64,000 nt of DNA, taken from a virus. The DNA lies in the IMG/VR virus record IMGVR_UViG_3300021963_000086, positions 1 to 64,000 of that record. One strand, 5' to 3'. Below the pieces are notes generated by a model, which saw nothing but the letters and a program-made list of their open reading frames with translations, made no database searches and was not told the DNA's origin. A program made the translations under genes and the position numbers. Positions 1,697 through 53,116 of this stretch are shown here, piece after piece (positions within the stretch are counted from its first letter, which is position 1; the number at the start of each line of letters is the position of its first letter).

Positions 1697-2131
1697 TTAG
1701 CCGTTTAATTTGTCTTTAATATGGGAGCCATGTACTCGAACCTGGATGTGACCGTTGTACCAGTCTGCAGATTCTAAAACCTTATGTGTAAATTGTTCTC
1801 TAGCCTCTATGTATGAGCATTCTGCCTTTGATTTGCAATAGTATAAAATTTCTCGTGTAAAATTTTCTTTGCCTAGGTTTTGTACGTCTTTGTTGAGTTG
1901 ATCGTTTGAGCCATAGTAGTCGCGCCAATCTGAATCAATCTTGGAGCGAATCTTCTTTTTCTTTTTGTTGCCGTTTTTAAGTTTTACTGTTTTGTATGTG
2001 GTTTTTGAGAATTTTGCTAGTTTTTTGCCTATATATTTGCGTCCGTTAGTGTTATTAGTAATAAGATACACGAATCCTATACAATCTTCCGGAAGTGTTT
2101 CTACAGGAATACCTTGAAATAACCATGTCAT
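1697..2131 (-). CDS. Stand-alone GIY-YIG family endonuclease-like protein
   Basis: GFVYLITN...YIGKK motif, YYGS, conserved E..EQ and YN; basic KKKKKIR insert. Confidence 0.8.
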   Translation of the reverse strand: MTWLFQGIPVETLPEDCIGFVYLITNNTNGRKYIGKKLAKFSKTTYKTVKLKNGNKKKKKIRSKIDSDWRDYYGSNDQLNKDVQNLGKENFTREILYYCKSKAECSYIEAREQFTHKVLESADWYNGHIQVRVHGSHIKDKLNG

Positions 2132-2149: not shown

Positions 2150-2806
2150 TTAGATCTGTCCTATCAGATCTTTGAGATTGGGCCGTGTATAGTAAATGAA
2201 TGTTACTGCGGCACGTTCATAAACACGATTTACTTCTTCTACCGTATTACACTCGTTTATTTCCCTAACCGTTTGTAAACGGGCCATTTCAAGTTTGTAT
2301 AGTGTTGTATCTTCTTCTTCTAATTTGAATTTGATTAATTTGATTGCCTGTTCATGTGTAATTTTGTGTGCCTTAGCGAACCCGTGTACCCATTTGTTAT
2401 CCCAGTCATTATTTTTTTGAATAGTTAAGTAACGATTGAAAGTTTCCTTGTCATCAAAACTTCTTGCCATTGTATAGATAAATTCTAAGCTGTTAATAAA
2501 GTATGCAAGTGCATAGCACTTGGCTTTAATAGTATAAACTTGTTGTCTTTTCTCTTCTGTAACATAATGAAAATCGTCTCTTAACTCTACTTTTTCAGGG
2601 CCAAGGTTATAAACTCTAAAATTGTTAATTTCATTGTACATATTAAAATTTACATAACCTCTGTAAATTTTTAAATTTAATCCTAAATGCGCTACAGGCG
2701 GTACAGTGATATCACTGCTAACGTCAGTAGTGTACCAAATAACCAAGTTAGTATCTTGGAGACAAAGCATTTTACATCTATGATAAAAATGACTAGGTGC
2801 TTTCAT
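2150..2806 (-). CDS. Partner protein of AsnB-like ligase with a C-terminal tail-fibre-chaperone-like helical domain
   Basis: C-terminal EQAIKLIKFK..E.ARL...INECNTVEEV parallels 49703..50323; 4-nt overlap with the upstream ligase gene. Confidence 0.5.
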   Translation of the reverse strand: MKAPSHFYHRCKMLCLQDTNLVIWYTTDVSSDITVPPVAHLGLNLKIYRGYVNFNMYNEINNFRVYNLGPEKVELRDDFHYVTEEKRQQVYTIKAKCYALAYFINSLEFIYTMARSFDDKETFNRYLTIQKNNDWDNKWVHGFAKAHKITHEQAIKLIKFKLEEEDTTLYKLEMARLQTVREINECNTVEEVNRVYERAAVTFIYYTRPNLKDLIGQI

Positions 2807-3873
2807 ATGATTATAAGATCAGTAATATCATCAGTAGATTTAAACTGTCCGTCTTGTTTGTATATAATTGTCTTTTGCATAGTGCGTACAGTATGCTTTT
2901 GGCTGTAGAGCTTTTCCTTGTTCTTAACGTAGGCTTCGTCTTTGGTAAAATCAAAGATATATCTTTTCGGAAAATCTCTAAAGTCGCTGGTACTTTTAAA
3001 AGTAGGATTAGTGCTCATATACTCAAATGAATATGTAGCAAACTCATGATCGTAATAAAATCTAAAGACCTTATGATCATCATTATCAATACCCGTTACA
3101 TCGTAGTCTGACCAAACATAGGGTCTTACTAATTCATCTTGCCCGGCAAAGGCCTGACTAAACCACCAAGCCAGTTGACTAACAGAATTAATTTCAAAAG
3201 GCGCATGTTCTCTTAATCCTTCGATCACAGGTTCCACACATTTGCCTTCTGGATCGATTGCTCTCCAAACTTTTTCTAGTTCTTCTTTAGGTAAGTCAAT
3301 TGACTTACCCCCGTCAGGCCACCATTGATGTAGATCTTGAGTACCTATAATATAGTCTCCGATGTCACCAGTAATCAGCATTAGATTAGGATCATTCATA
3401 TCTCGCTGATGATCCATAGCCATAATGGGAATGTTAGGAAGTATAAATTCGTAGAATAGTTTAGAGTATTCTAAGATGCTACTGCTGGTCATGTTAAGTA
3501 CAAACTGCCCAGCTTCTAGTTTTTCTTTAAATCTAGGATGTTGTGCTAGAGCACATAGAACCTGTACGCTGTCAATACCTCCGCTATAACAAAGACTAAT
3601 AACTCTATCACCTGCTATACGATATATTTTGTCAGCAACAGAATCAGTAATTGCCACATATCTATCATACCAATCATTGGTCAAATTTGATAGATTATAT
3701 GTTACGGGTTTCATAATTACTTCTGCTTTAAGATCTCTTACGTTTTTTAATACGCCAAAACGATCTGCACCGAATTCGTAATGATTCGATATAAGTCTGT
3801 AATTCTTACGCCAACTAGGACTGTTAAATCTTAATGCAGACCAATTGGCCCATACATAGGTACGTTCACTCAT
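2803..3873 (-). CDS. AsnB synthetase-domain-like (PP-loop) ATP-dependent ligase, subtype A
   Basis: YSGGIDS PP-loop plus LITGDIGD (compare AsnB SGEGADE); no glutaminase domain. Confidence 0.7.
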   Translation of the reverse strand: MSERTYVWANWSALRFNSPSWRKNYRLISNHYEFGADRFGVLKNVRDLKAEVIMKPVTYNLSNLTNDWYDRYVAITDSVADKIYRIAGDRVISLCYSGGIDSVQVLCALAQHPRFKEKLEAGQFVLNMTSSSILEYSKLFYEFILPNIPIMAMDHQRDMNDPNLMLITGDIGDYIIGTQDLHQWWPDGGKSIDLPKEELEKVWRAIDPEGKCVEPVIEGLREHAPFEINSVSQLAWWFSQAFAGQDELVRPYVWSDYDVTGIDNDDHKVFRFYYDHEFATYSFEYMSTNPTFKSTSDFRDFPKRYIFDFTKDEAYVKNKEKLYSQKHTVRTMQKTIIYKQDGQFKSTDDITDLIII

Positions 3874-5443
3874 CTGTGTAAATGTTGTCTTTTAAGTATT
3901 GGTATAGGGTCGGTGAATTATTTGCGGCCTCTTGCCATCTTGCTTTTTTAATCTCAAAACTTTCAACTATTCCATTAACGTCAGGTAACTGATTATCTAG
4001 TTTAATGTCTACAGAATCTAATAGCAAGTAATTTAATCCTGTAGAAATCCAGGTTATACCTTGTGTGGGGTCTATGGAATTAATATGCATCTTTGTATCA
4101 GCCAAAGGATAAAAGCCTTGACCAGTATTTGGTTTAAGGTTTTCAATTCCTGGACAATATGTACGATTAGCATTGGCCTTCCAGTACTCTGTATCGTCCC
4201 TTACACTGAGAGCATAATGTTGTGCCACAAATTCTGCAAAGTTCCTAAAGATTGCAAAAGTAGAAGCGTTATAAGCATCTTTTTCCCATTGTGTAATAGC
4301 AGGACGTTGTAAAACTTTTATTAACTTGAATAAGAATTGGTGAACACTAAACAATCCGTTGGATTCTAAAGGTTCAATGAATCCTGCACTTAACCCAATC
4401 GCAACTACGTTTTTAACAAAGGTGCGTTCATGAATACCTACACGCATTTCGATATTTTTGTATTCTAGCGCATCTACTTCTTCTCTAGTTCGAGGATATA
4501 ACATTTTATCACTCATTAGATATTGTTTGAATTGCTCTAGTGCATCAGCATCATTAATAAACTTATCACTATAAACATAGCCTGTACCTAAACGCGACCA
4601 TAATGGAATATTCCAAACCCAGCCATTGTCAATAGCAGTACAGTTTGTAAACGGCTCTAATTCTGTTTCTTTATTTTTATAAGGTAAACGAGTTGCCCAT
4701 GCCTTGTTATTAGGTAGCATATCACTATAACTGATAAATGGTTCATTGAGTGCGTTTAGCAACAAACTCTTAAATCCAGTGCAATCAATAAACAAATCGC
4801 CCTCGACTCTATTCAACGGATTGCTTTCAAGTTGTAAACTTTGTATACCATGTTGTCTTACGTGTACATAAACAACATCATCTTCAATACGTTTAACACC
4901 CCGCGGCAAACAATAACGATCACGCAACCATGCACCAAACTTTGTAGCATCAAAATGATATGCGACATCTCTATTTGGGTTGAAGTTGTCAAATGTCATA
5001 TCTTTGTTAGGATTATATTTGTTGTTTTCAAATAATGCGGCACTAGGGAAATAGCATCGCGCAAAATCTTGTACAGGTGTTTCAGGGTGAACATGTTTCT
5101 TGTAATACCAATCGTAGATTCCTGTCTGCGTCCCGTCTAATAACACCCGGCCAAATGGATAATGGAAGCTACCGGCATTCTTTTCATAAAAATCCGTAAA
5201 CTTGATACTAAGTTTGTAGCTAGCATCAGTAAATTCCATAAAGTCTTTTTCGTCTATTTCTAACCAATTAGTATAGTCTCTAATGCCACCAATAGTACTT
5301 TCGCCTACTCCAATAATAGGAATGTTAGGACTTTCAATTACTGTAATATCTTTGTCAGGAAATGTTTTAATAAGAATAGCGGCTGTCATCCAACCAGCAG
5401 ATCCTCCTCCTACAATTACAATTTTGTTGTTTGGTTTAATCAT
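3866..5443 (-). CDS. Flavin-dependent tryptophan halogenase family protein
   Basis: GGGSAGW FAD motif, GVGEST, ASYKLSIKF (catalytic Lys position), FIDCTGF, WVWNIP, FIEPLES. Confidence 0.9.
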   Translation of the reverse strand: MIKPNNKIVIVGGGSAGWMTAAILIKTFPDKDITVIESPNIPIIGVGESTIGGIRDYTNWLEIDEKDFMEFTDASYKLSIKFTDFYEKNAGSFHYPFGRVLLDGTQTGIYDWYYKKHVHPETPVQDFARCYFPSAALFENNKYNPNKDMTFDNFNPNRDVAYHFDATKFGAWLRDRYCLPRGVKRIEDDVVYVHVRQHGIQSLQLESNPLNRVEGDLFIDCTGFKSLLLNALNEPFISYSDMLPNNKAWATRLPYKNKETELEPFTNCTAIDNGWVWNIPLWSRLGTGYVYSDKFINDADALEQFKQYLMSDKMLYPRTREEVDALEYKNIEMRVGIHERTFVKNVVAIGLSAGFIEPLESNGLFSVHQFLFKLIKVLQRPAITQWEKDAYNASTFAIFRNFAEFVAQHYALSVRDDTEYWKANANRTYCPGIENLKPNTGQGFYPLADTKMHINSIDPTQGITWISTGLNYLLLDSVDIKLDNQLPDVNGIVESFEIKKARWQEAANNSPTLYQYLKDNIYTDE

Positions 5444-6557
5444 CTGTTCTCTCCGGTGTTTGTGTTGCTAATGTTATTTCCACTAGTTTTGTAGACTTTA
5501 ACACTATAGGATCTTTGCCCTCTATTAAATTGATCATTTCTTTGATAGGTAGTATTACTGCTTGTTTGTTATCGTCATTAACACCTGCCGCAGTTTTTAA
5601 TATATCTGTGTAATGCTTCATACGACTCTTAGGTAACTTGTTAATAAAGTTATCACGCATAACATTACCATACAGTTGTTCAAAGCCTGTATACTTGCGA
5701 GTAGGAATCATTTCTGGAAAGTGGCTCAACGCCATTTGCGGTTTAAACAAATAATGGAAACATCGCCACCAAGTGGCAGGATTTGGATGCCATACGCAGA
5801 ATGTGTCATAAATCATATCCTGTGCTCTATAATAGTTTTGCATAACAGGATCAGTTAAGTAGCTGTGGATTAGTTCTGGGCTCCACATATAAAATTTACT
5901 AGTACCCTCAAACCCGCTTTCAATCATGTGCTGTTCAATAGGCAAGGGTTTCATATACCAAGTTGGTGTGGAAAGACCATTAGACATTAAAGGTAATGAT
6001 TGGTTAGGGCAACTTGCAGGATTTACAACTACCATCATAATGTCACCGCCAGCCATGATATAGCAACGGTCTTTACAATGATCCATAGCCGCGGTCTGCA
6101 CAATAGTTTCAGCATTACTCATGCCGTATTTTTTAGCGTACTCTACACCTTTACCAGTATAATGTTTAGGCAAATCTAATACAAGTTCTTCGTAAGGTAC
6201 ATTAAACTTTTTGCAAAACTTATAAGCATTGTCTGTATCGTGACTATTAATAACGTTATTAAATTCGTCTTTATAAGTAACGATTAATGCAGTAAAAGGT
6301 ACTTTGGCTTCTATTAAGCTAAGGCAAACCATTTGACTATCGCTACCACCACTTAGTCCAACTACAATAGGTTTTGTTGTATTATTTGCAATGTCTTTGG
6401 AGGCCTGTACACATTCGTGGCGAAAGCCCAATGACGGGCGACTTAGTGTACCTATAGTAATTTTGTAGGGTTCGTCTGGAACTCGACGACCAAACCATTC
6501 ATCTCCCCAGCCCCATTTGTAATGGTTGTCTTTACTATACTGGAATTTAGGCTCCAT
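5436..6557 (-). CDS. AsnB-like PP-loop ligase, subtype B
   Basis: LSGGSDS; C-terminal RKYTGFE resembles the AsnB R.K.GF motif. Confidence 0.65.
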   Translation of the reverse strand: MEPKFQYSKDNHYKWGWGDEWFGRRVPDEPYKITIGTLSRPSLGFRHECVQASKDIANNTTKPIVVGLSGGSDSQMVCLSLIEAKVPFTALIVTYKDEFNNVINSHDTDNAYKFCKKFNVPYEELVLDLPKHYTGKGVEYAKKYGMSNAETIVQTAAMDHCKDRCYIMAGGDIMMVVVNPASCPNQSLPLMSNGLSTPTWYMKPLPIEQHMIESGFEGTSKFYMWSPELIHSYLTDPVMQNYYRAQDMIYDTFCVWHPNPATWWRCFHYLFKPQMALSHFPEMIPTRKYTGFEQLYGNVMRDNFINKLPKSRMKHYTDILKTAAGVNDDNKQAVILPIKEMINLIEGKDPIVLKSTKLVEITLATQTPERTDD

Positions 6558-47075: not shown

Positions 47076-47829
47076 CGCATATCATCTCAGTTGGCTAGCT
47101 GAAGAACTACATAAAGCTAAGTTTATTGATGTAAGTAATAGACAGTTCTATAATTGGTATAACAGTATAAACGATGGCAATCATGATAAACCTCAACCAG
47201 AAGTTTATCTATTTGCGGCCTTTGACGAGCTAATGACTATTTGTCCAAATAACCTATTCGGAAGAGTAATTAGTTTAGTAGAAGATTATCCTACAGTAAA
47301 TTGGGTAGATGCTTTTAGTAGGTTTCAAATACGTAGTAAAATAACAGCGGCCAATACGTTGTTGGCAACAGAAGCAGAGTTTGGCGACATTTGGATAATG
47401 GGGGGTTGGGTAGGAGTGTTACCTATGCTACTAACCGAAAAGTTATATCCTAATAGGTACAATACTATCGTAAGCTACGACCTAGACAATATCGCTAATC
47501 TAGCAGGCGAAAAACTAGTAAATTCTACTCGATACAGCGCAGAATTCAAGGATATCTATGCCTTAGACTATACAAACTTTTCAGGTACTGTCGTGAATAC
47601 TATCTGCGAACATTTAGACAGGTTTGATATTTGGCAAAACCAAATCCCTTCAAACACACTAATGTTACTCCAAAGCAACAACATGTTTGGAGTAGTTGAT
47701 GATCATGTTAATTGTGTGAGCAATATGGACGACTTTGTTAGTCGTTTGGATTGTAAAGAAATTATACATAAAGAAACAAGCACCTATAACGATCAATACG
47801 AACGCTATACGGTGCTTGCTATTAAGTAA
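47062..47829 (+). CDS. SAM-dependent methyltransferase-like protein
   Basis: IMGGWVG motif I, SYDLD, VNTICEH, LQSNN. Confidence 0.6.
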   Translation: MKKFNAYHLSWLAEELHKAKFIDVSNRQFYNWYNSINDGNHDKPQPEVYLFAAFDELMTICPNNLFGRVISLVEDYPTVNWVDAFSRFQIRSKITAANTLLATEAEFGDIWIMGGWVGVLPMLLTEKLYPNRYNTIVSYDLDNIANLAGEKLVNSTRYSAEFKDIYALDYTNFSGTVVNTICEHLDRFDIWQNQIPSNTLMLLQSNNMFGVVDDHVNCVSNMDDFVSRLDCKEIIHKETSTYNDQYERYTVLAIK

Positions 47830-48640
47830 TATCAGAAGTAATGATAATGTCTTGCTCTGGATATAATGCAACTAGTTCAGCACGTAATGCCTGATCTTCT
47901 TCTTGCACATTTTCAAAACCGTTGAACTTAACTCTAGGTGCAATGCCTAGATAGTGTTGATAGAAATCTGCCTTACGGTCTTTACTTGACTGCCCGTAGT
48001 TCATGGTAGGCCAAAACTCGTCATTGATCCACGCCTCAAAAACTGATTTGTCTAATTGGAAAGGTAGTGCATTACCGTCAATACCTCTGAGTCTGCGATA
48101 AATTTCTACGCTAAAGTGCATTGGTTTTTCAGTCAGTTCTACAATGTCACCTGCTTGACCTTTAAACTTTAGTTCCGGCTCACCAATACAAAGCATAGGA
48201 TAACCAAACGGCAACATAGCCTCCATCATCTTCATGTATACAAGATATTGTGGACTTGTACAACGTGTCATTTCGGCTATTTCTAAACTATGGTTTTTTT
48301 GTTCTACCCAAAGACCCACAGGATCAAAACTAATTACTCTAGGATAATATCCATGTGTCTCGCACCACTCAACTGCATGATGTGTATCGTGCTGGTTCTT
48401 ACCTGCATAATCAAAGATTATCGGAGTAAAAGGTCTACCCATATTATGCAAAATTGTAGCAACTGCTTCGCTATCTATTCCGCCACTAAGTGCAAGAACA
48501 ATATTAAAAGGAGTAACATTGCCTAGGTATGTTTCCATAGCCGTTATCCAATTGGGACTGTTGTTTGTGCGCTCTAAATTATACTCTAGAGTAGCACCAA
48601 AATCACTTACTTTAAGATGATCTAATTCAAAGTTAATCAT
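47822..48640 (-). CDS. AsnB-like PP-loop ligase, subtype B
   Basis: LSGGIDSE, N.HD...A, PRVKFNGFE. Confidence 0.65.
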   Translation of the reverse strand: MINFELDHLKVSDFGATLEYNLERTNNSPNWITAMETYLGNVTPFNIVLALSGGIDSEAVATILHNMGRPFTPIIFDYAGKNQHDTHHAVEWCETHGYYPRVISFDPVGLWVEQKNHSLEIAEMTRCTSPQYLVYMKMMEAMLPFGYPMLCIGEPELKFKGQAGDIVELTEKPMHFSVEIYRRLRGIDGNALPFQLDKSVFEAWINDEFWPTMNYGQSSKDRKADFYQHYLGIAPRVKFNGFENVQEEDQALRAELVALYPEQDIIITSDIT

Positions 48641-49706
48641 TTATTAAATTCTCCAAGTTCACTGTTTTGTGGAATTTAAAATCGTCTGTAATAAAATTAC
48701 TAACATATTTAAACCTAACCATATCGGGTAAACTGGGGACTTTAGTTTTACTAGTGTAGTATGCGCGATTACGATCAAACTCATAAATCAGCTCTTTTGC
48801 TACCCACTTGTAACTAGCCCAGTCTTTTGCAACTTTTTTATCAGGGTTGCTTACAGACCATTGTTGCCAAAGCCCAGTATTCCAGAAATGTATTAAACTA
48901 CTATTTACCCATTCATGAGTCAGCTCAACGCCCGGACAAGCATGACTTAGGATACGGAATTCTACAGCTTGCCATTTCATAGTAAAGTTAATCCACCACA
49001 TGTAATCGTGTAAACTCTTAATCCCGTTAGGGTTTAGCTTCATAACGGGCTCCATACGGGACATCATCATTTCTGCTTCTTCCTTGCTACCTAATTTTTG
49101 TGTAAAAAACTCTAGTGCAGGATCCTTATAAGGTACGTGGACTAGATCTTTATTACCTAAGCGATCCATGGCCATACCTAAAGTTAAACTGCCAAACACG
49201 TTGTCAGCCATTTCCCCCGTAAGTACAATATGATCTTCTGTTAAGTACTTTTCAAAACTGTTACTACTAGCCATGCGGAAGCGGGTAATATATTTTTTGT
49301 AGAACTCGGGGTTCTCTGCAATACTAGCTTCGTTTAAGATTACTAAGGTACGATCAAATAAGTCTTGATTGCCTAACTGCATCAAAAGTACCATCAGTAA
49401 AGTACTGTCAATGCCTCCGCTATACATGACTACAAATTGTTTGTTAGGATTGTCTTTAACATAAGCAATTATCTCTAGCATACGCTGATTGCAAATTTCT
49501 TCAAACGTTTTATCAGTCCATAAGCTAGCAGGCATAGGAAATAAATTCTTAATCTTAACAGGCCATTTGATAGTACCAGTCCTGTCGTACAAGCTAATGC
49601 TAGGATTGAACATTCGTTTGAAAGGCTCAGTTGACTTTAACTGAGGATATTGTTCTAGATTGTCCTTGCTATAAAGGTCAATGGGATTATAATACAGCAG
49701 GCTCAT
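48633..49706 (-). CDS. AsnB synthetase-domain-like ligase, subtype A
   Basis: YSGGIDST, VLTGEMADNVFG, WW.NF. Confidence 0.75.
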   Translation of the reverse strand: MSLLYYNPIDLYSKDNLEQYPQLKSTEPFKRMFNPSISLYDRTGTIKWPVKIKNLFPMPASLWTDKTFEEICNQRMLEIIAYVKDNPNKQFVVMYSGGIDSTLLMVLLMQLGNQDLFDRTLVILNEASIAENPEFYKKYITRFRMASSNSFEKYLTEDHIVLTGEMADNVFGSLTLGMAMDRLGNKDLVHVPYKDPALEFFTQKLGSKEEAEMMMSRMEPVMKLNPNGIKSLHDYMWWINFTMKWQAVEFRILSHACPGVELTHEWVNSSLIHFWNTGLWQQWSVSNPDKKVAKDWASYKWVAKELIYEFDRNRAYYTSKTKVPSLPDMVRFKYVSNFITDDFKFHKTVNLENLIND

Positions 49707-50323
49707 AGTAATACGTTTAACCAGCTTTCTCTGTGCATACGATCTTTAATCTCTTTGATCTCTTCTAGAGAGGTACATTTACGCAAGTCACGTAAGTATT
49801 GCATACGAAGACGTTCGGTGTTAGCATAGGTATCTCTAGTTAATTCAGCTTTGAATAGAATTTGATCGGCGGCCTGAGTTAATGTACAAGATGCAAATTC
49901 TGCGTAGTCTTTTACCATTTGGCAGTCTTCAGTTGATCCATTACGAACTAATCGTGCTTGCCTTTCTTTTTCTAAGTAAACAAGATCTTGTTGATTAACA
50001 ACTGGACTAATACGTACACGAGCATAGTTAATAATACTAAGAATATCATAATACGCCCATAGTTTGTTTTGCATTAATAAACTTCTATCTTTAACTGCAT
50101 CGTTGTTGGCCTTAACAAGATTGTTTTGCATTAGGCTAGGCTTATAAGACCAATTCCACGGATGTGCTTTTAAGTCTGCAACATCTGCATCACTTAATTC
50201 GTGTACTCCGAGTACCAGCTGGCAATCGCATTCGCTCTCTACTAGCCAAAGTAAATGTTTACGTTCAGGTGTTACTGATAGTACTCTATACTCTGTGTCT
50301 ACTATTAAAGGTTGATATTTCAT
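49703..50323 (-). CDS. Partner protein with a tail-fibre-chaperone-like helical domain
   Basis: Q..VYLEKERQAR...A....T..QAADQIL.KA......E.LR......C.S.EEI. Confidence 0.55.
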   Translation of the reverse strand: MKYQPLIVDTEYRVLSVTPERKHLLWLVESECDCQLVLGVHELSDADVADLKAHPWNWSYKPSLMQNNLVKANNDAVKDRSLLMQNKLWAYYDILSIINYARVRISPVVNQQDLVYLEKERQARLVRNGSTEDCQMVKDYAEFASCTLTQAADQILFKAELTRDTYANTERLRMQYLRDLRKCTSLEEIKEIKDRMHRESWLNVLL

Positions 50324-51099
50324 TTTAGAAAAGGTTTAAAAATTTTACAAGGATCAAATTCCCACCACTTGCCACTTACACCTGTTCCAAAGTCAAACGA
50401 ACGAGGTGCTTGATGATGATTGTTATGCCATCCTTGCCCCCACGCAAAGTAACCTAGTAAAGGAACATTTTGACTCCAATCTTTAGTTTCAAAGTTTCTA
50501 TAACCTGCAGGTGTAGCCCAGTGCCCATACAAGTCTACTAGGTTTTCTTGATGCTGTGCCCAGGTCATGGACATAATAAAACCGTACAAGGCCAACTTCC
50601 AACTAAGCAATGCAACGACTACTAATGTACCCCAAATAATTTTATCATAATGTTTGTGACAGAACACTTGAAATTGATCTCGCAGTAGGTCAACAGAATA
50701 TTTCATATTAACATCAGATGGTTTAAGTTTAGTCATCCATCCCATATAGGCATTCCACTTACCGTGATAGGGACTATGAAAGTCTTTTTCTGTATCAGCA
50801 TGTGGATGATGATAACCTCTGTGCATTGCACACCAAAAGATAGCACTACCTTGGCAACCAAACATACCTAGTACAGTAAGTATCTTTTGTTTCCATAACG
50901 GAACTTCTAATGCTTTGTGACTTAGAACTCTATGATAGCCTATTGCTACACCTAAGCCACTGAACAAAGTCCAACAGATTAGTGTAGCCCATAACCATAC
51001 ATAGTCTCCTAAGCTGATCATTGTTATTAGTGCAACAACAAACAACACATGAACAGGTATGGTAATACGTTGTACGTGTTGCGGAATATTTTTAATCAT
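50320..51099 (-). CDS. Membrane fatty-acyl (delta9-type) desaturase
   Basis: His boxes HRVLSH, HRGYHH, WHNNHH; D.HSP; TM segments. Confidence 0.92.
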   Translation of the reverse strand: MIKNIPQHVQRITIPVHVLFVVALITMISLGDYVWLWATLICWTLFSGLGVAIGYHRVLSHKALEVPLWKQKILTVLGMFGCQGSAIFWCAMHRGYHHPHADTEKDFHSPYHGKWNAYMGWMTKLKPSDVNMKYSVDLLRDQFQVFCHKHYDKIIWGTLVVVALLSWKLALYGFIMSMTWAQHQENLVDLYGHWATPAGYRNFETKDWSQNVPLLGYFAWGQGWHNNHHQAPRSFDFGTGVSGKWWEFDPCKIFKPFLK

Positions 51100-51715
51100 T
51101 CTTATATCCAGGTTTATATAATTGTTTTAAAACACTAACATCTGGTCTGTGTTCTTGACGCAAAATATGATGACGAATCACCATATCAGTAGGCCATAAT
51201 GTGCTTTTCATCATTACAACCCAAAATTCATCGTATGCTGGTCTTTTTAACGCAGGCACTACATGGTCAAAGTTAATGTCATACCGCTTGCGCTCAGGGA
51301 CTAGCTTACCCCAAATTCTTTCATGTGCTTTTATGTACTGAGTAGGGATACTGCTATAATACTCAAATAGGTATTTACTCTCAGCAAAGTTAATAGCATG
51401 ACTCATTAAGTCAGCAATACCCTTCATTGGCACACTCGACGAAACACCTGCATCGCTTACAACTTTTTGTAAGTACCATACAGGACGCATAGTACTTAAC
51501 TGTATGTTCAGATAACTAATTAAGTTTCCGTTATCAAAATATCCCCAGCAAAGATATGTTGGATTGCTTTCTTCCAAATACAAATGACTAAAGTTGCTTT
51601 CGCTCCAAAAATGATCAGCGCCGGCCTGACTCGTAGTTACACCTGCGTGTTTATCATGACTGATAGTGATACGCTTTAGGTCTTCTTTATATTCTTTGCC
51701 TAGTAATTTAATCAT
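51092..51715 (-). CDS. Hypothetical protein, possible divergent GNAT fold
   Basis: WGYFDNGNLISY...WYLQKV...GIADLMSHAI pattern; no clear motif A. Confidence 0.45.
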   Translation of the reverse strand: MIKLLGKEYKEDLKRITISHDKHAGVTTSQAGADHFWSESNFSHLYLEESNPTYLCWGYFDNGNLISYLNIQLSTMRPVWYLQKVVSDAGVSSSVPMKGIADLMSHAINFAESKYLFEYYSSIPTQYIKAHERIWGKLVPERKRYDINFDHVVPALKRPAYDEFWVVMMKSTLWPTDMVIRHHILRQEHRPDVSVLKQLYKPGYKND

Positions 51716-52646
51716 GTCTAAGTCTTTTAATCAATTCTGAATATTCTGTTTTTAGTATAACATCATGTTGTACGTCATTACAGTCACCTAAGTCTAGATA
51801 AACTTTGTTGTTTAAGTGCATTACGTTTTCATAACCGTGGTATTTTGGTCGTGCTTCAAAATTAAAATACTTTGCATAAACATTTGGCTTAGTACTTAAT
51901 AATCCGTATTTGTAGTCTATGCGATCGTTTACTAAATCTTGTACTAACGGGTCAATTAAGTAACTTAACATCAGCTCTGGAGTATAACTAAAGAACTCGC
52001 TAATAACTGTTTTGTTTGTTTTTAGCGAATATTTAAAATAACTCATATCGTTATCTTCTCTAACATAGTGATACCATTTATAATTGTAGGTAGAACTATT
52101 AGTTGCATAAAACTCTTTTATGTCTACTTCTCGACTCATGAAAATCTCACCGCCTAAAATGTAAATGTCATCTTTAGGCAATGTGTCAAGTGCTTTCATG
52201 ATGATCATCATTGCTAGTTGTTTGACTTGATACTCTCGATGGTAATAAAAATGTAGACCTTTGGCTACGAAGTCGGCCGGATCTATATAAAGAATTTGAT
52301 ATGGTATTTTATTAGCTTGACAGTATCGGTGTGCGTATTGTGTATCATGTTGGTTGACTCCCATGTCAACAATAATACAATCAAAAGGAATACCTGCACG
52401 TTGAAAAGCCATGACAACGATTTCGCTGTCAATGCCGCCGCTGTATAGTATACGTATTCTTTGTCCTGGTCTAGTCTTACTGAAAATTAGTCTAGCCGCA
52501 CGTTCACACTCGAAATCCCATGATCCTATCGGACCTGCACACCTACCCACTTTAAAGGAAAATATGTCGTTAGAAGATTTCCTATATGTAAAAGGTTGAC
52601 CGTTATATAAAAATTGATAGTGGTTTTTGTAAGTGAGTTCTGTCAT
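51708..52646 (-). CDS. AsnB-like PP-loop ligase, subtype B
   Basis: YSGGIDSE, N.HD..YA, FF.YTPEL, RPKYHGYE; start MTELTY 8 nt after TAAATA (52655-52660). Confidence 0.7.
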   Translation of the reverse strand: MTELTYKNHYQFLYNGQPFTYRKSSNDIFSFKVGRCAGPIGSWDFECERAARLIFSKTRPGQRIRILYSGGIDSEIVVMAFQRAGIPFDCIIVDMGVNQHDTQYAHRYCQANKIPYQILYIDPADFVAKGLHFYYHREYQVKQLAMMIIMKALDTLPKDDIYILGGEIFMSREVDIKEFYATNSSTYNYKWYHYVREDNDMSYFKYSLKTNKTVISEFFSYTPELMLSYLIDPLVQDLVNDRIDYKYGLLSTKPNVYAKYFNFEARPKYHGYENVMHLNNKVYLDLGDCNDVQHDVILKTEYSELIKRLRHD

Positions 52647-52657
52647 TATGTAGGTAT

Positions 52658-53116
52658 TTATTTCAGCTTCATACTGGCATAACAATTAGGACCAAACTCC
52701 ATGTCCTTGTCAAACCAATCTGATGTTTGTATAAATCCTACACTTTGATAAGCTGGCAAGGCAGATTGCCTTGGTACTGTCCATATATGGCTAGCATTCC
52801 AATCCTTTGCTTGAAAGATAGAATTTTCTAGCACGATTCTTGCATAACCTTTATTACGGTATAATGGATCTACCCATAGGCCTCGACTTCTAGCAGAACC
52901 ATCTGCACACATAACAACGCTATTAATTGCAACTATATCATTGTTATTACGTATAGAAAAGAAAGCAGGTACGAACTGCTGGTTTTGCATATCGTACCCG
53001 CCAAGATAACGCATTGCACTAGTAGGTTCAATCTTTGACTTGCGTCCTGGCCAAAGTTTGTCTTGCCATACACGGAATGTTTCTTCCCATGTAGCAGGTC
53101 CTACTAGTAAGTTCAT
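52658..53116 (-). CDS. GNAT family acyltransferase
   Basis: RGLWVDPLYRNKGYA; A...YQSVGF. Confidence 0.85.
   Translation of the reverse strand: MNLLVGPATWEETFRVWQDKLWPGRKSKIEPTSAMRYLGGYDMQNQQFVPAFFSIRNNNDIVAINSVVMCADGSARSRGLWVDPLYRNKGYARIVLENSIFQAKDWNASHIWTVPRQSALPAYQSVGFIQTSDWFDKDMEFGPNCYASMKLK

Follow-up and report, generated by a model that had tools for sequence, protein, structure and literature searches.

Analysis of a 64,000-nt stretch of viral DNA (hereafter the window; positions 1 to 64,000 of IMG/VR record IMGVR_UViG_3300021963_000086) revealed two pairs of overlapping genes, each made up of a PP-loop ligase of approximately 360 aa and a second protein of approximately 210 aa. We refer to them as ligA1 and partner1 in operon 1 and as ligA2 and partner2 in operon 2 (Table 1). 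The two genes form a genetically coupled unit that is retained throughout a clade of viral and bacterial ligases, and the sequences of the two proteins diverge together. The explanation that we favor, and to which we give somewhat better than an even chance, regards the partner as an accessory subunit, obligate and non-catalytic, of an AsnB-type amide ligase that is split in two. A preliminary description of this DNA had proposed a two-component enzyme in which the partner aims the ligase at tail-fiber proteins. The idea of a coupled unit was upheld by the clade-wide pairing and the co-divergence, while the idea of fiber targeting found no support in profile searches or in the genes next to the pair.

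Co-occurrence of the ligase and the partner

In a search from the partner side, 6 viral and 45 metagenomic loci were recovered with the partner alignment. Five of these break off at a contig edge; in each of the 46 whose flanking DNA was long enough, a ligA2 homolog lies next to the partner on the same strand. In a high-GC soil virus, for example, this ligase and ligA2 share 33% identity over 354 aa (E 1e-64). When the 26 loci of at least 5 kb were considered, the partner and the ligase were the only gene families present in all of them. From the ligase side, the ligase alignment retrieved 79 genome loci, belonging to Patescibacteria (the candidate phyla radiation, CPR), Bdellovibrionales, Bacteroidota, Proteobacteria, Acidobacteriota and Chloroflexota, together with the best 80 of at least 500 confirmed viral matches. 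An iterated hidden Markov model (HMM) of the partner detected it in 79 of these 80 viral loci and in 32 of the 79 genome loci. The single viral exception has an upstream open reading frame (ORF) of 195 aa that ends in FFTNILL and gives a weak partner match (E 0.0098).

A maximum-likelihood tree of the ligases placed the partnered genes in one clade of 116 tips (support 0.97). The possibility raised at the outset, that such ligases usually occur without a partner, did not hold for this clade, in which 112 of the 115 tips from outside the window are partnered. Members of the clade fall into 73 clusters when grouped at 70% identity and into at least 29 when grouped at 50%, and the association is therefore not a sampling artifact of close relatives; altogether, the pairing recurs in well over 100 independent loci. 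Another 43 ligase genes, all partnerless, form a separate clade (support 0.99). Many of the loci were taken from metagenome-assembled genomes (MAGs), for which binning errors could put viral contigs in bacterial bins; a Patescibacteria pair locus was found in a complete 859-kb Kaiserbacteria chromosome record.

The partnerless sister clade (loci L077-L134) comes from genomes of Bacteroidota, Proteobacteria, Acidobacteriota and Chloroflexota. Its Bacteroidota ligase is preceded by a cupin of about 215 aa with His-rich motifs and by an ORF of about 132 aa. Both were considered as cryptic partners and rejected, as the hhalign probabilities were about 1% or less; cupins also accompany many partnered ligases. 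Within the GenBank collection, Pseudomonas phage Cygsa01 (L215, PP179332.1, 11421-13570) alone among cultured phages has relatives of the ligase. Its two distant copies have no partner and are located a short way past three large hypothetical proteins and a baseplate-wedge gene, and their annotation as tRNA 2-thiouridylase MnmA is probably wrong. Two or three copies of the partner, the ligase or both are present on some contigs (L016, L039, L059, L066, L161, L187, L189, L204), including tandem partner-ligase-partner-ligase arrays that mirror the two pairs of the window.

Gene order, spacing and co-divergence

The partner gene is located upstream of the ligase gene in 113 pairs and downstream in 8, so that the arrangement of operon 2 is canonical and that of operon 1 rare. 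Gaps in the partner-then-ligase order have a median of -4 nt; 107 of the 113 fall between -30 and +20 nt, with a 4-nt overlap in 44 of these pairs and a 1-nt overlap in 18. Comparison of the partner and ligase distance matrices from 109 loci gave a correlation of r = 0.89 (Mantel p = 0.001), with the partner evolving faster than the ligase. In marine T4-like relatives, a block of three genes encoding a second type of ligase (ligB), a 207-aa protein (X207) and a desaturase is found directly upstream of the pair or, in inverted orientation, on the opposite side of it, and the partner and the ligase never separate when this block is moved or inverted. The two genes are usually translationally coupled and their sequences diverge together, which supports an obligate two-gene module. 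The preliminary description had noted that in the window each subtype-A ligase gene overlaps a gene for a protein of about 210 aa by 4 nt and that the pair is kept in both gene orders. We confirmed the four ORFs and their ATGA junctions, and the second point was borne out genetically across the whole clade.

It is conceivable that the two proteins are separate enzymes that simply act one after the other in a pathway, or that their genes are operon neighbors inherited together, with no physical contact between the proteins. Other tailoring genes, among them ligB and the desaturase, also recur beside the pair, the sister ligases function without a partner, and the partner, having no assigned fold, could be an enzyme that has escaped recognition. 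However, no other neighbor comes near the almost universal presence and fixed spacing of the partner, the partner family is devoid of a conserved catalytic-type nucleophile, and the stop-start overlaps have been kept across at least 29 deep lineages. We regard this alternative as unlikely.

Homology between the two pairs of the window

By BLASTP, partner1 and partner2 are 30% identical over 63 C-terminal residues (E 1e-6), and an hhalign comparison of their two families gave a probability of 71-73% (E 3e-5) over 64-70 columns. This modest signal became firm after enlargement of the partner family: the iterated partner HMM, which drew on 159 other loci and contained no partner1 sequences, found partner1 at E 1.6e-13 over residues 59-200. 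Judging from these comparisons, partner1 and partner2 are real but distant homologs, as had been suggested from the window itself, and the C-terminal pattern on which that suggestion was based corresponds to the invariant columns A141, Q150, A151, I155, K158 and E170 of the family.

The two ligases are likewise divergent homologs; over 274 aa their identity is 21% (E 9e-6). With ligA1 left out of its construction, a ligase profile matched ligA1 at E 2e-20 and did not match any of the three other PP-loop genes of the window; hence, "subtype A" is a real subfamily. On the ligase tree, ligA1 sits on a long branch and its placement was not resolved (support 0.41).

Class and structure of the ligase

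The AF2 model of ligA2 (pLDDT 88.5) was most similar in VIA to TsnB9 (Z 12.6, 252 aligned residues), followed by beta-lactam synthetase (11.5), human ASNS (11.4), CarA (9.8) and Escherichia coli AsnB (9.5). These top five matches are all of the AsnB class, with 197-252 residues aligned, and other PP-loop families reached a Z of 8.4 or less. Foldseek retrieved CarA, TsnB9, ASNS and beta-lactam synthetase at E 1.5e-4 to 1e-3, and six of the seven matches with E of 1e-3 or lower, all of them of the AsnB class, had a probability of 1.0. The fold of the ligase is thus that of the AsnB class. The structural alignments to this class begin at target residues 133-205, and a Pfam scan of the 357-aa ligA2 found no GATase domain. 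Within the SGGxDS PP-loop, an alignment of 23 ligases, ligA1 and ligA2 included, shows no variation at S96, G97, G98, D100 and S101, and several lysines are invariant as well.

Sequence profiles gave little beyond this loop. The Pfam matches of ligA2 were all below threshold (ATP_bind_3, E 0.01; NAD_synthase, E 0.043), ligA1 had none, and the Asn_synthase model scored above threshold in neither protein. A profile search of the PDB with the ligase produced a match confined to the PP-loop. On the strength of the modeled structure, ligA is best described as a glutaminase-less AsnB-class synthetase domain.

The partner protein and its family

Word-indexed searches identified 17 relatives of partner2 and four close homologs of partner1. 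The partner2 family profile, searched exhaustively with HMMER, was far more productive and yielded 270 representative clusters at 50% identity, of which 104 score at E 1e-10 or better; nearly all members are 180-260 aa long, and the distant ones found by this profile are 23-33% identical to partner2. The family is characterized by the motif QE.VY..K..QA..FK..GY.E....PYV.QYA....S..QAAD.IL.KA.L....LAKTE.LRL.Y. Conservation falls on Lys, Arg, Gln, Tyr and Glu residues (K87, R102, Q112, Y116, K119, Y140, E170 and R173), and no conserved Cys, Ser or His nucleophile was seen in the family alignment. Neither Pfam nor NCBIfam gave a match for the family. In PHROGs, 33 of 45 members matched phrog_8983 (best E 4.5e-10) and 6 of 45 matched phrog_21671, which partner2 also matches (E 1.5e-3); both groups contain partner-family members and carry no functional annotation. 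Among the cultured phages of the GenBank collection there was no DNA match, and no tblastn match to either of two partner queries. X207, the protein of similar size encoded two genes upstream of partner2, was tried as a partner homolog and rejected, as it did not match the partner profile.

In the AF2 model of partner2 (pLDDT 82.4), residues 1-71 form a small alpha/beta domain and residues 75-205 a helical bundle. Searches of the PDB with this model returned only generic three-helix bundles, with Z of 10.8 or less, which is below the meaningful level for helical folds, and no sequence relative of the partner was found among solved structures. In BFVD, uncharacterized phage proteins ranked first (best E 8e-14). 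At its C-terminal end the partner is moderately conserved, in the form [E/D]-x-aromatic-x-N-x-x-hydrophobic-COOH; ESWLNVLL is an example, and in the window the stretch lies at 49703-49730 on the minus strand. A hydrophobic residue closes the chain in 111 of 157 partner representatives and in 92 of 119 loci (71-77%).

AsnB-class enzymes activate carboxylates, and the partner might be the substrate or carrier on which the ligase works. The ligase would adenylate a carboxylate of the partner, for example at the C-terminus or on a conserved Glu, and then amidate it or ligate it to an amine, much as other systems activate the C-termini of proteins. Such a role would suit the fold class of the ligase, the moderately conserved tail and the invariant E170, and strict 1:1 coupling with co-divergence is what an enzyme with a dedicated substrate might exhibit. 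However, N-x-x-hydrophobic ends occur in only 25-38% of the members, and the end of partner1 differs; moreover, a folded protein of 200 aa with many conserved internal polar residues resembles a binding subunit more than a substrate. We consider a substrate or carrier role, the main rival of the favored model, unlikely, and give it the same weight as the reading of two consecutive pathway steps.

Relationship to tail-fiber chaperones

DUF4376 is the conserved C-terminus of Tfa-type chaperones (PMC7882524, PMC7289586). The partner had initially been called fiber-chaperone-like, and a derivative of such a chaperone might direct the ligase to fiber or other virion proteins for post-translational modification. 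There is a likeness in architecture: the Tfa proteins (the TfaMu or Mu gene U type, and gp27 of Alteromonas phage V22) and the partner are phage-borne, are about 200-225 aa long, and combine a variable N-terminal part with a conserved C-terminal part, which is helical (PMC7882524). The weaker rows of the BFVD search contained DUF4376 proteins (E 0.13-0.16) and the Tfa U protein (E 0.34), and the look-alike clusters proposed for the partner by a language model, at scores of 0.88-0.93, carried in part the labels HI1402_helical, Phage_YomQ_N, Caudo_TAP_N, Caudo_TAP and "tail protein family". Both kinds of result are leads and not tests. With regard to location, the pair lies among virion structural genes in one soil-phage lineage only, and in the window the fiber-like genes are followed, at a distance of about 6 kb, by operon 2.

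The comparisons by sequence model and profile were negative. The Pfam models DUF4376 (PF14301) and Caudo_TAP (PF02413) matched neither partner1 nor partner2 at E up to 0.1 and none of 45 partner-family members at E 0.01, and PF14301 had no match anywhere in the 79-kb record at E up to 10. Caudo_TAP seed proteins were sought in 400 genomes and none was found. As a comparison set, we collected seven genuine DUF4376 proteins from Rhizobium, Agrobacterium, Pectobacterium and Pseudomonas phages and one bacterial genome; three of these are themselves annotated as putative tail fiber assembly proteins, and four of the seven genes directly follow a gene annotated as tail fiber, tail-collar domain protein or long tail fiber subunit. 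Alignment of four partner alignments against these seven proteins by hhalign gave probabilities of 0.05-0.6%. The genomic setting differs as well: a Tfa gene follows a fiber gene, whereas the partner gene mostly precedes its ligase (113 of 121 pairs), and, unlike Tfa, the partner is also found in bacterial chromosomes away from tail genes, such as the CPR contigs, in which the pair lies beside YcaO, a phosphoribosyltransferase/beta-propeller fusion and a symporter. No fiber gene recurs among the neighbors in 111 partner-bearing loci. Homology to tail-fiber chaperones was thus rejected at the sequence level by the Pfam models and hhalign, and we judge a chaperone-derived role of the partner to be very unlikely.

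A split amide ligase as the favored model

In the model that we favor, the ~210-aa partner and the ~360-aa PP-loop protein would be two subunits of one enzyme. The ligase would bind ATP at its SGGIDS loop and adenylate a carboxylate, and attack by an amine would then yield an amide. The partner, presumably by forming a physical complex with the ligase, would help to select or present the substrate or the nucleophile, or would close the active site. In gene order and in size it would take the place of the missing N-terminal domain of about 200 residues, with an unrelated fold. The module would act inside variable sets of tailoring genes, which in phages comprise a second ligase type, di-iron oxygenases, cupins, GNATs and a halogenase, and in CPR bacteria YcaO, the phosphoribosyltransferase/beta-propeller fusion and a sodium:solute symporter. 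This company of tailoring genes suggests a small-molecule, lipid or nucleotide-like substrate rather than tail fibers.

Several observations weigh against this model. Adjacency and co-divergence would also fit enzymes acting in sequence in a pathway, or an enzyme and its substrate, and the sister clade of ligases works without a partner. The partner fold has no informative match, so that a catalytic role of the partner is possible. Fusions of the two proteins were not found among longer proteins, in what was a weak search.

A more far-reaching version, which we put forward tentatively and hold to be doubtful, is that the partner is a new, non-homologous replacement of the N-terminal domain of the AsnB class that sets the nucleophile or the substrate, and that the pair forms the core of an undescribed tailoring pathway. 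This pathway would be found in many uncultured phages, in CPR bacteria and in Bdellovibrio-like bacteria, would run alongside di-iron oxygenases, cupins, YcaO and the phosphoribosyltransferase, and might lead to a modified lipid, nucleotide or peptide-like product.

Genomic setting in the window and in related loci

The virus is a T4-like myovirus. The parent IMG/VR contig is 79 kb long, of which the window is the first 64 kb, and its completeness according to CheckV is 22%. The window encodes gp25- and gp6-like baseplate genes, a giant ORF of 3009 aa, gp46/gp47-like genes, a segE-type GIY-YIG endonuclease and ThyX. Two minus-strand operons contain five PP-loop proteins and three GNATs, together with a PhyH dioxygenase, a tryptophan-halogenase homolog, a PPPDE/DUF3750 protein and a fatty-acid-desaturase-like protein. 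The genes that flank the two pairs are the desaturase-like gene, ligases and the GIY-YIG endonuclease. Genes at 47822-48640 and 5436-6557 fall into the cluster of ligB, and X207 had no match in Pfam or PHROGs.

Table 1. Genes and gene junctions of the two ligase-partner pairs and of the block adjoining operon 2, in window coordinates.
Feature	Position	Strand	Remark
ligA1 (356 aa)	2803..3873	-	Divergent member of the ligA2 family; operon 1
partner1 (218 aa)	2150..2806	-	Divergent partner-family member; minority order (ligase, then partner)
ligA1 stop / partner1 start, ATGA overlap	2803..2806	-	Direct sequence reading
ligA2 (357 aa)	48633..49706	-	Glutaminase-less AsnB-class PP-loop synthetase; SGGIDS at residues 96-101
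partner2 (206 aa)	49703..50323	-	Canonical partner-family member; operon 2
partner2 TGA stop / ligA2 ATG start, ATGA overlap	49703..49706	-	Direct sequence reading
Fatty-acid-desaturase-like membrane di-iron protein	50320..51099	-	Directly upstream of partner2; Pfam FA_desaturase, E 4.5e-10
X207 (207 aa)	51092..51715	-	Function unassigned; member of the recurring ligB-X207-desaturase block
ligB, second-type PP-loop ligase (325 aa)	51708..52685	-	Weak Asn_synthase and PP-loop matches

Neighbors were counted over the 111 partner-bearing loci. Those that recurred were ligB (38 loci), a fatty-acid-desaturase-like protein (34), a cupin (31), X207 (cluster c6; 30 loci, in 15 of which the X207 of the window itself matches the members), a fatty-acid hydroxylase (22), ThyX (19) and a sodium:solute symporter (17). 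The ligB-X207-desaturase block (window 50320-52685) was present in about 30 viral loci, including L135-L158, L180 and L200-L201, and was often accompanied by ThyX and the fatty-acid hydroxylase. The block resembles a larger tailoring cassette that marine T4-like phages carry.

A different arrangement was observed in CPR bacteria, where the gene order is YcaO, in most cases a fusion of phosphoribosyltransferase with a pyrroloquinoline quinone (PQQ)-type beta-propeller, the partner, the ligase and often a sodium:solute symporter. MAG contigs of CPR bacteria with this order are L057, L060, L062, L070, L073 and L075. Two metagenome contigs, L028 and L032, are organized alike and have a nitroreductase-family protein between YcaO and the phosphoribosyltransferase fusion. 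For organisms whose genomes are very small, this YcaO-fusion-partner-ligase arrangement is a cluster with no earlier description.

The segE-type GIY-YIG endonuclease of the window (1697-2131, minus strand) lies directly downstream of partner1, and its homologs, with up to 55% identity, were found beside pairs in eight other viral loci (among them L161, L168, L173, L181, L185 and L188-L190). A homing endonuclease of this kind could help the module to move between phages.

Significance and comparison with known systems

The class of the ligase is known, but the partner-dependent, glutaminase-less form was absent from Pfam, NCBIfam and PHROGs and from a limited search of the literature. The system is widespread, with at least 500 viral relatives of the ligase profile and the partner in 79 of the best 80 of them, and the module has been retained by CPR bacteria, whose genomes are very small and keep few accessory enzymes. 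Knowing the identity of the product would explain the recurrent tailoring-gene block of marine T4-like phages. It could also bring to light a new means by which AsnB-type amide synthetases gain specificity; these enzymes are of interest for natural-product research and biocatalysis.

WbuX-type N-acetyl-sugar amidotransferases (TIGR03573) are stand-alone PP-loop enzymes that work with separate HisH/HisF-like subunits. They resemble ligA in being glutaminase-less PP-loop enzymes of about 370 aa with separately encoded partner proteins, but the partner described here is not HisH/HisF-like, and NCBIfam, TIGR03573 included, had no match for ligA1, ligA2 or a soil homolog at E up to 0.01. The members of the AsnB class (AsnB/ASNS, beta-lactam synthetase, the carbapenam synthetase CarA and the hydroxyamidotransferase TsnB9) have C-terminal synthetase domains like the ligA model and have the SGGxDS motif in common with it, the similarity in sequence being limited to the PP-loop. 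These enzymes possess an N-terminal Ntn glutaminase-type domain, whereas ligA is without it. Unlike the AsnB class, ligA has conserved motifs of its own, namely DRTGT near the N-terminus, WWINF.LKWQ and FQLWS, and is paired with a separate and unrelated partner protein of about 210 aa.

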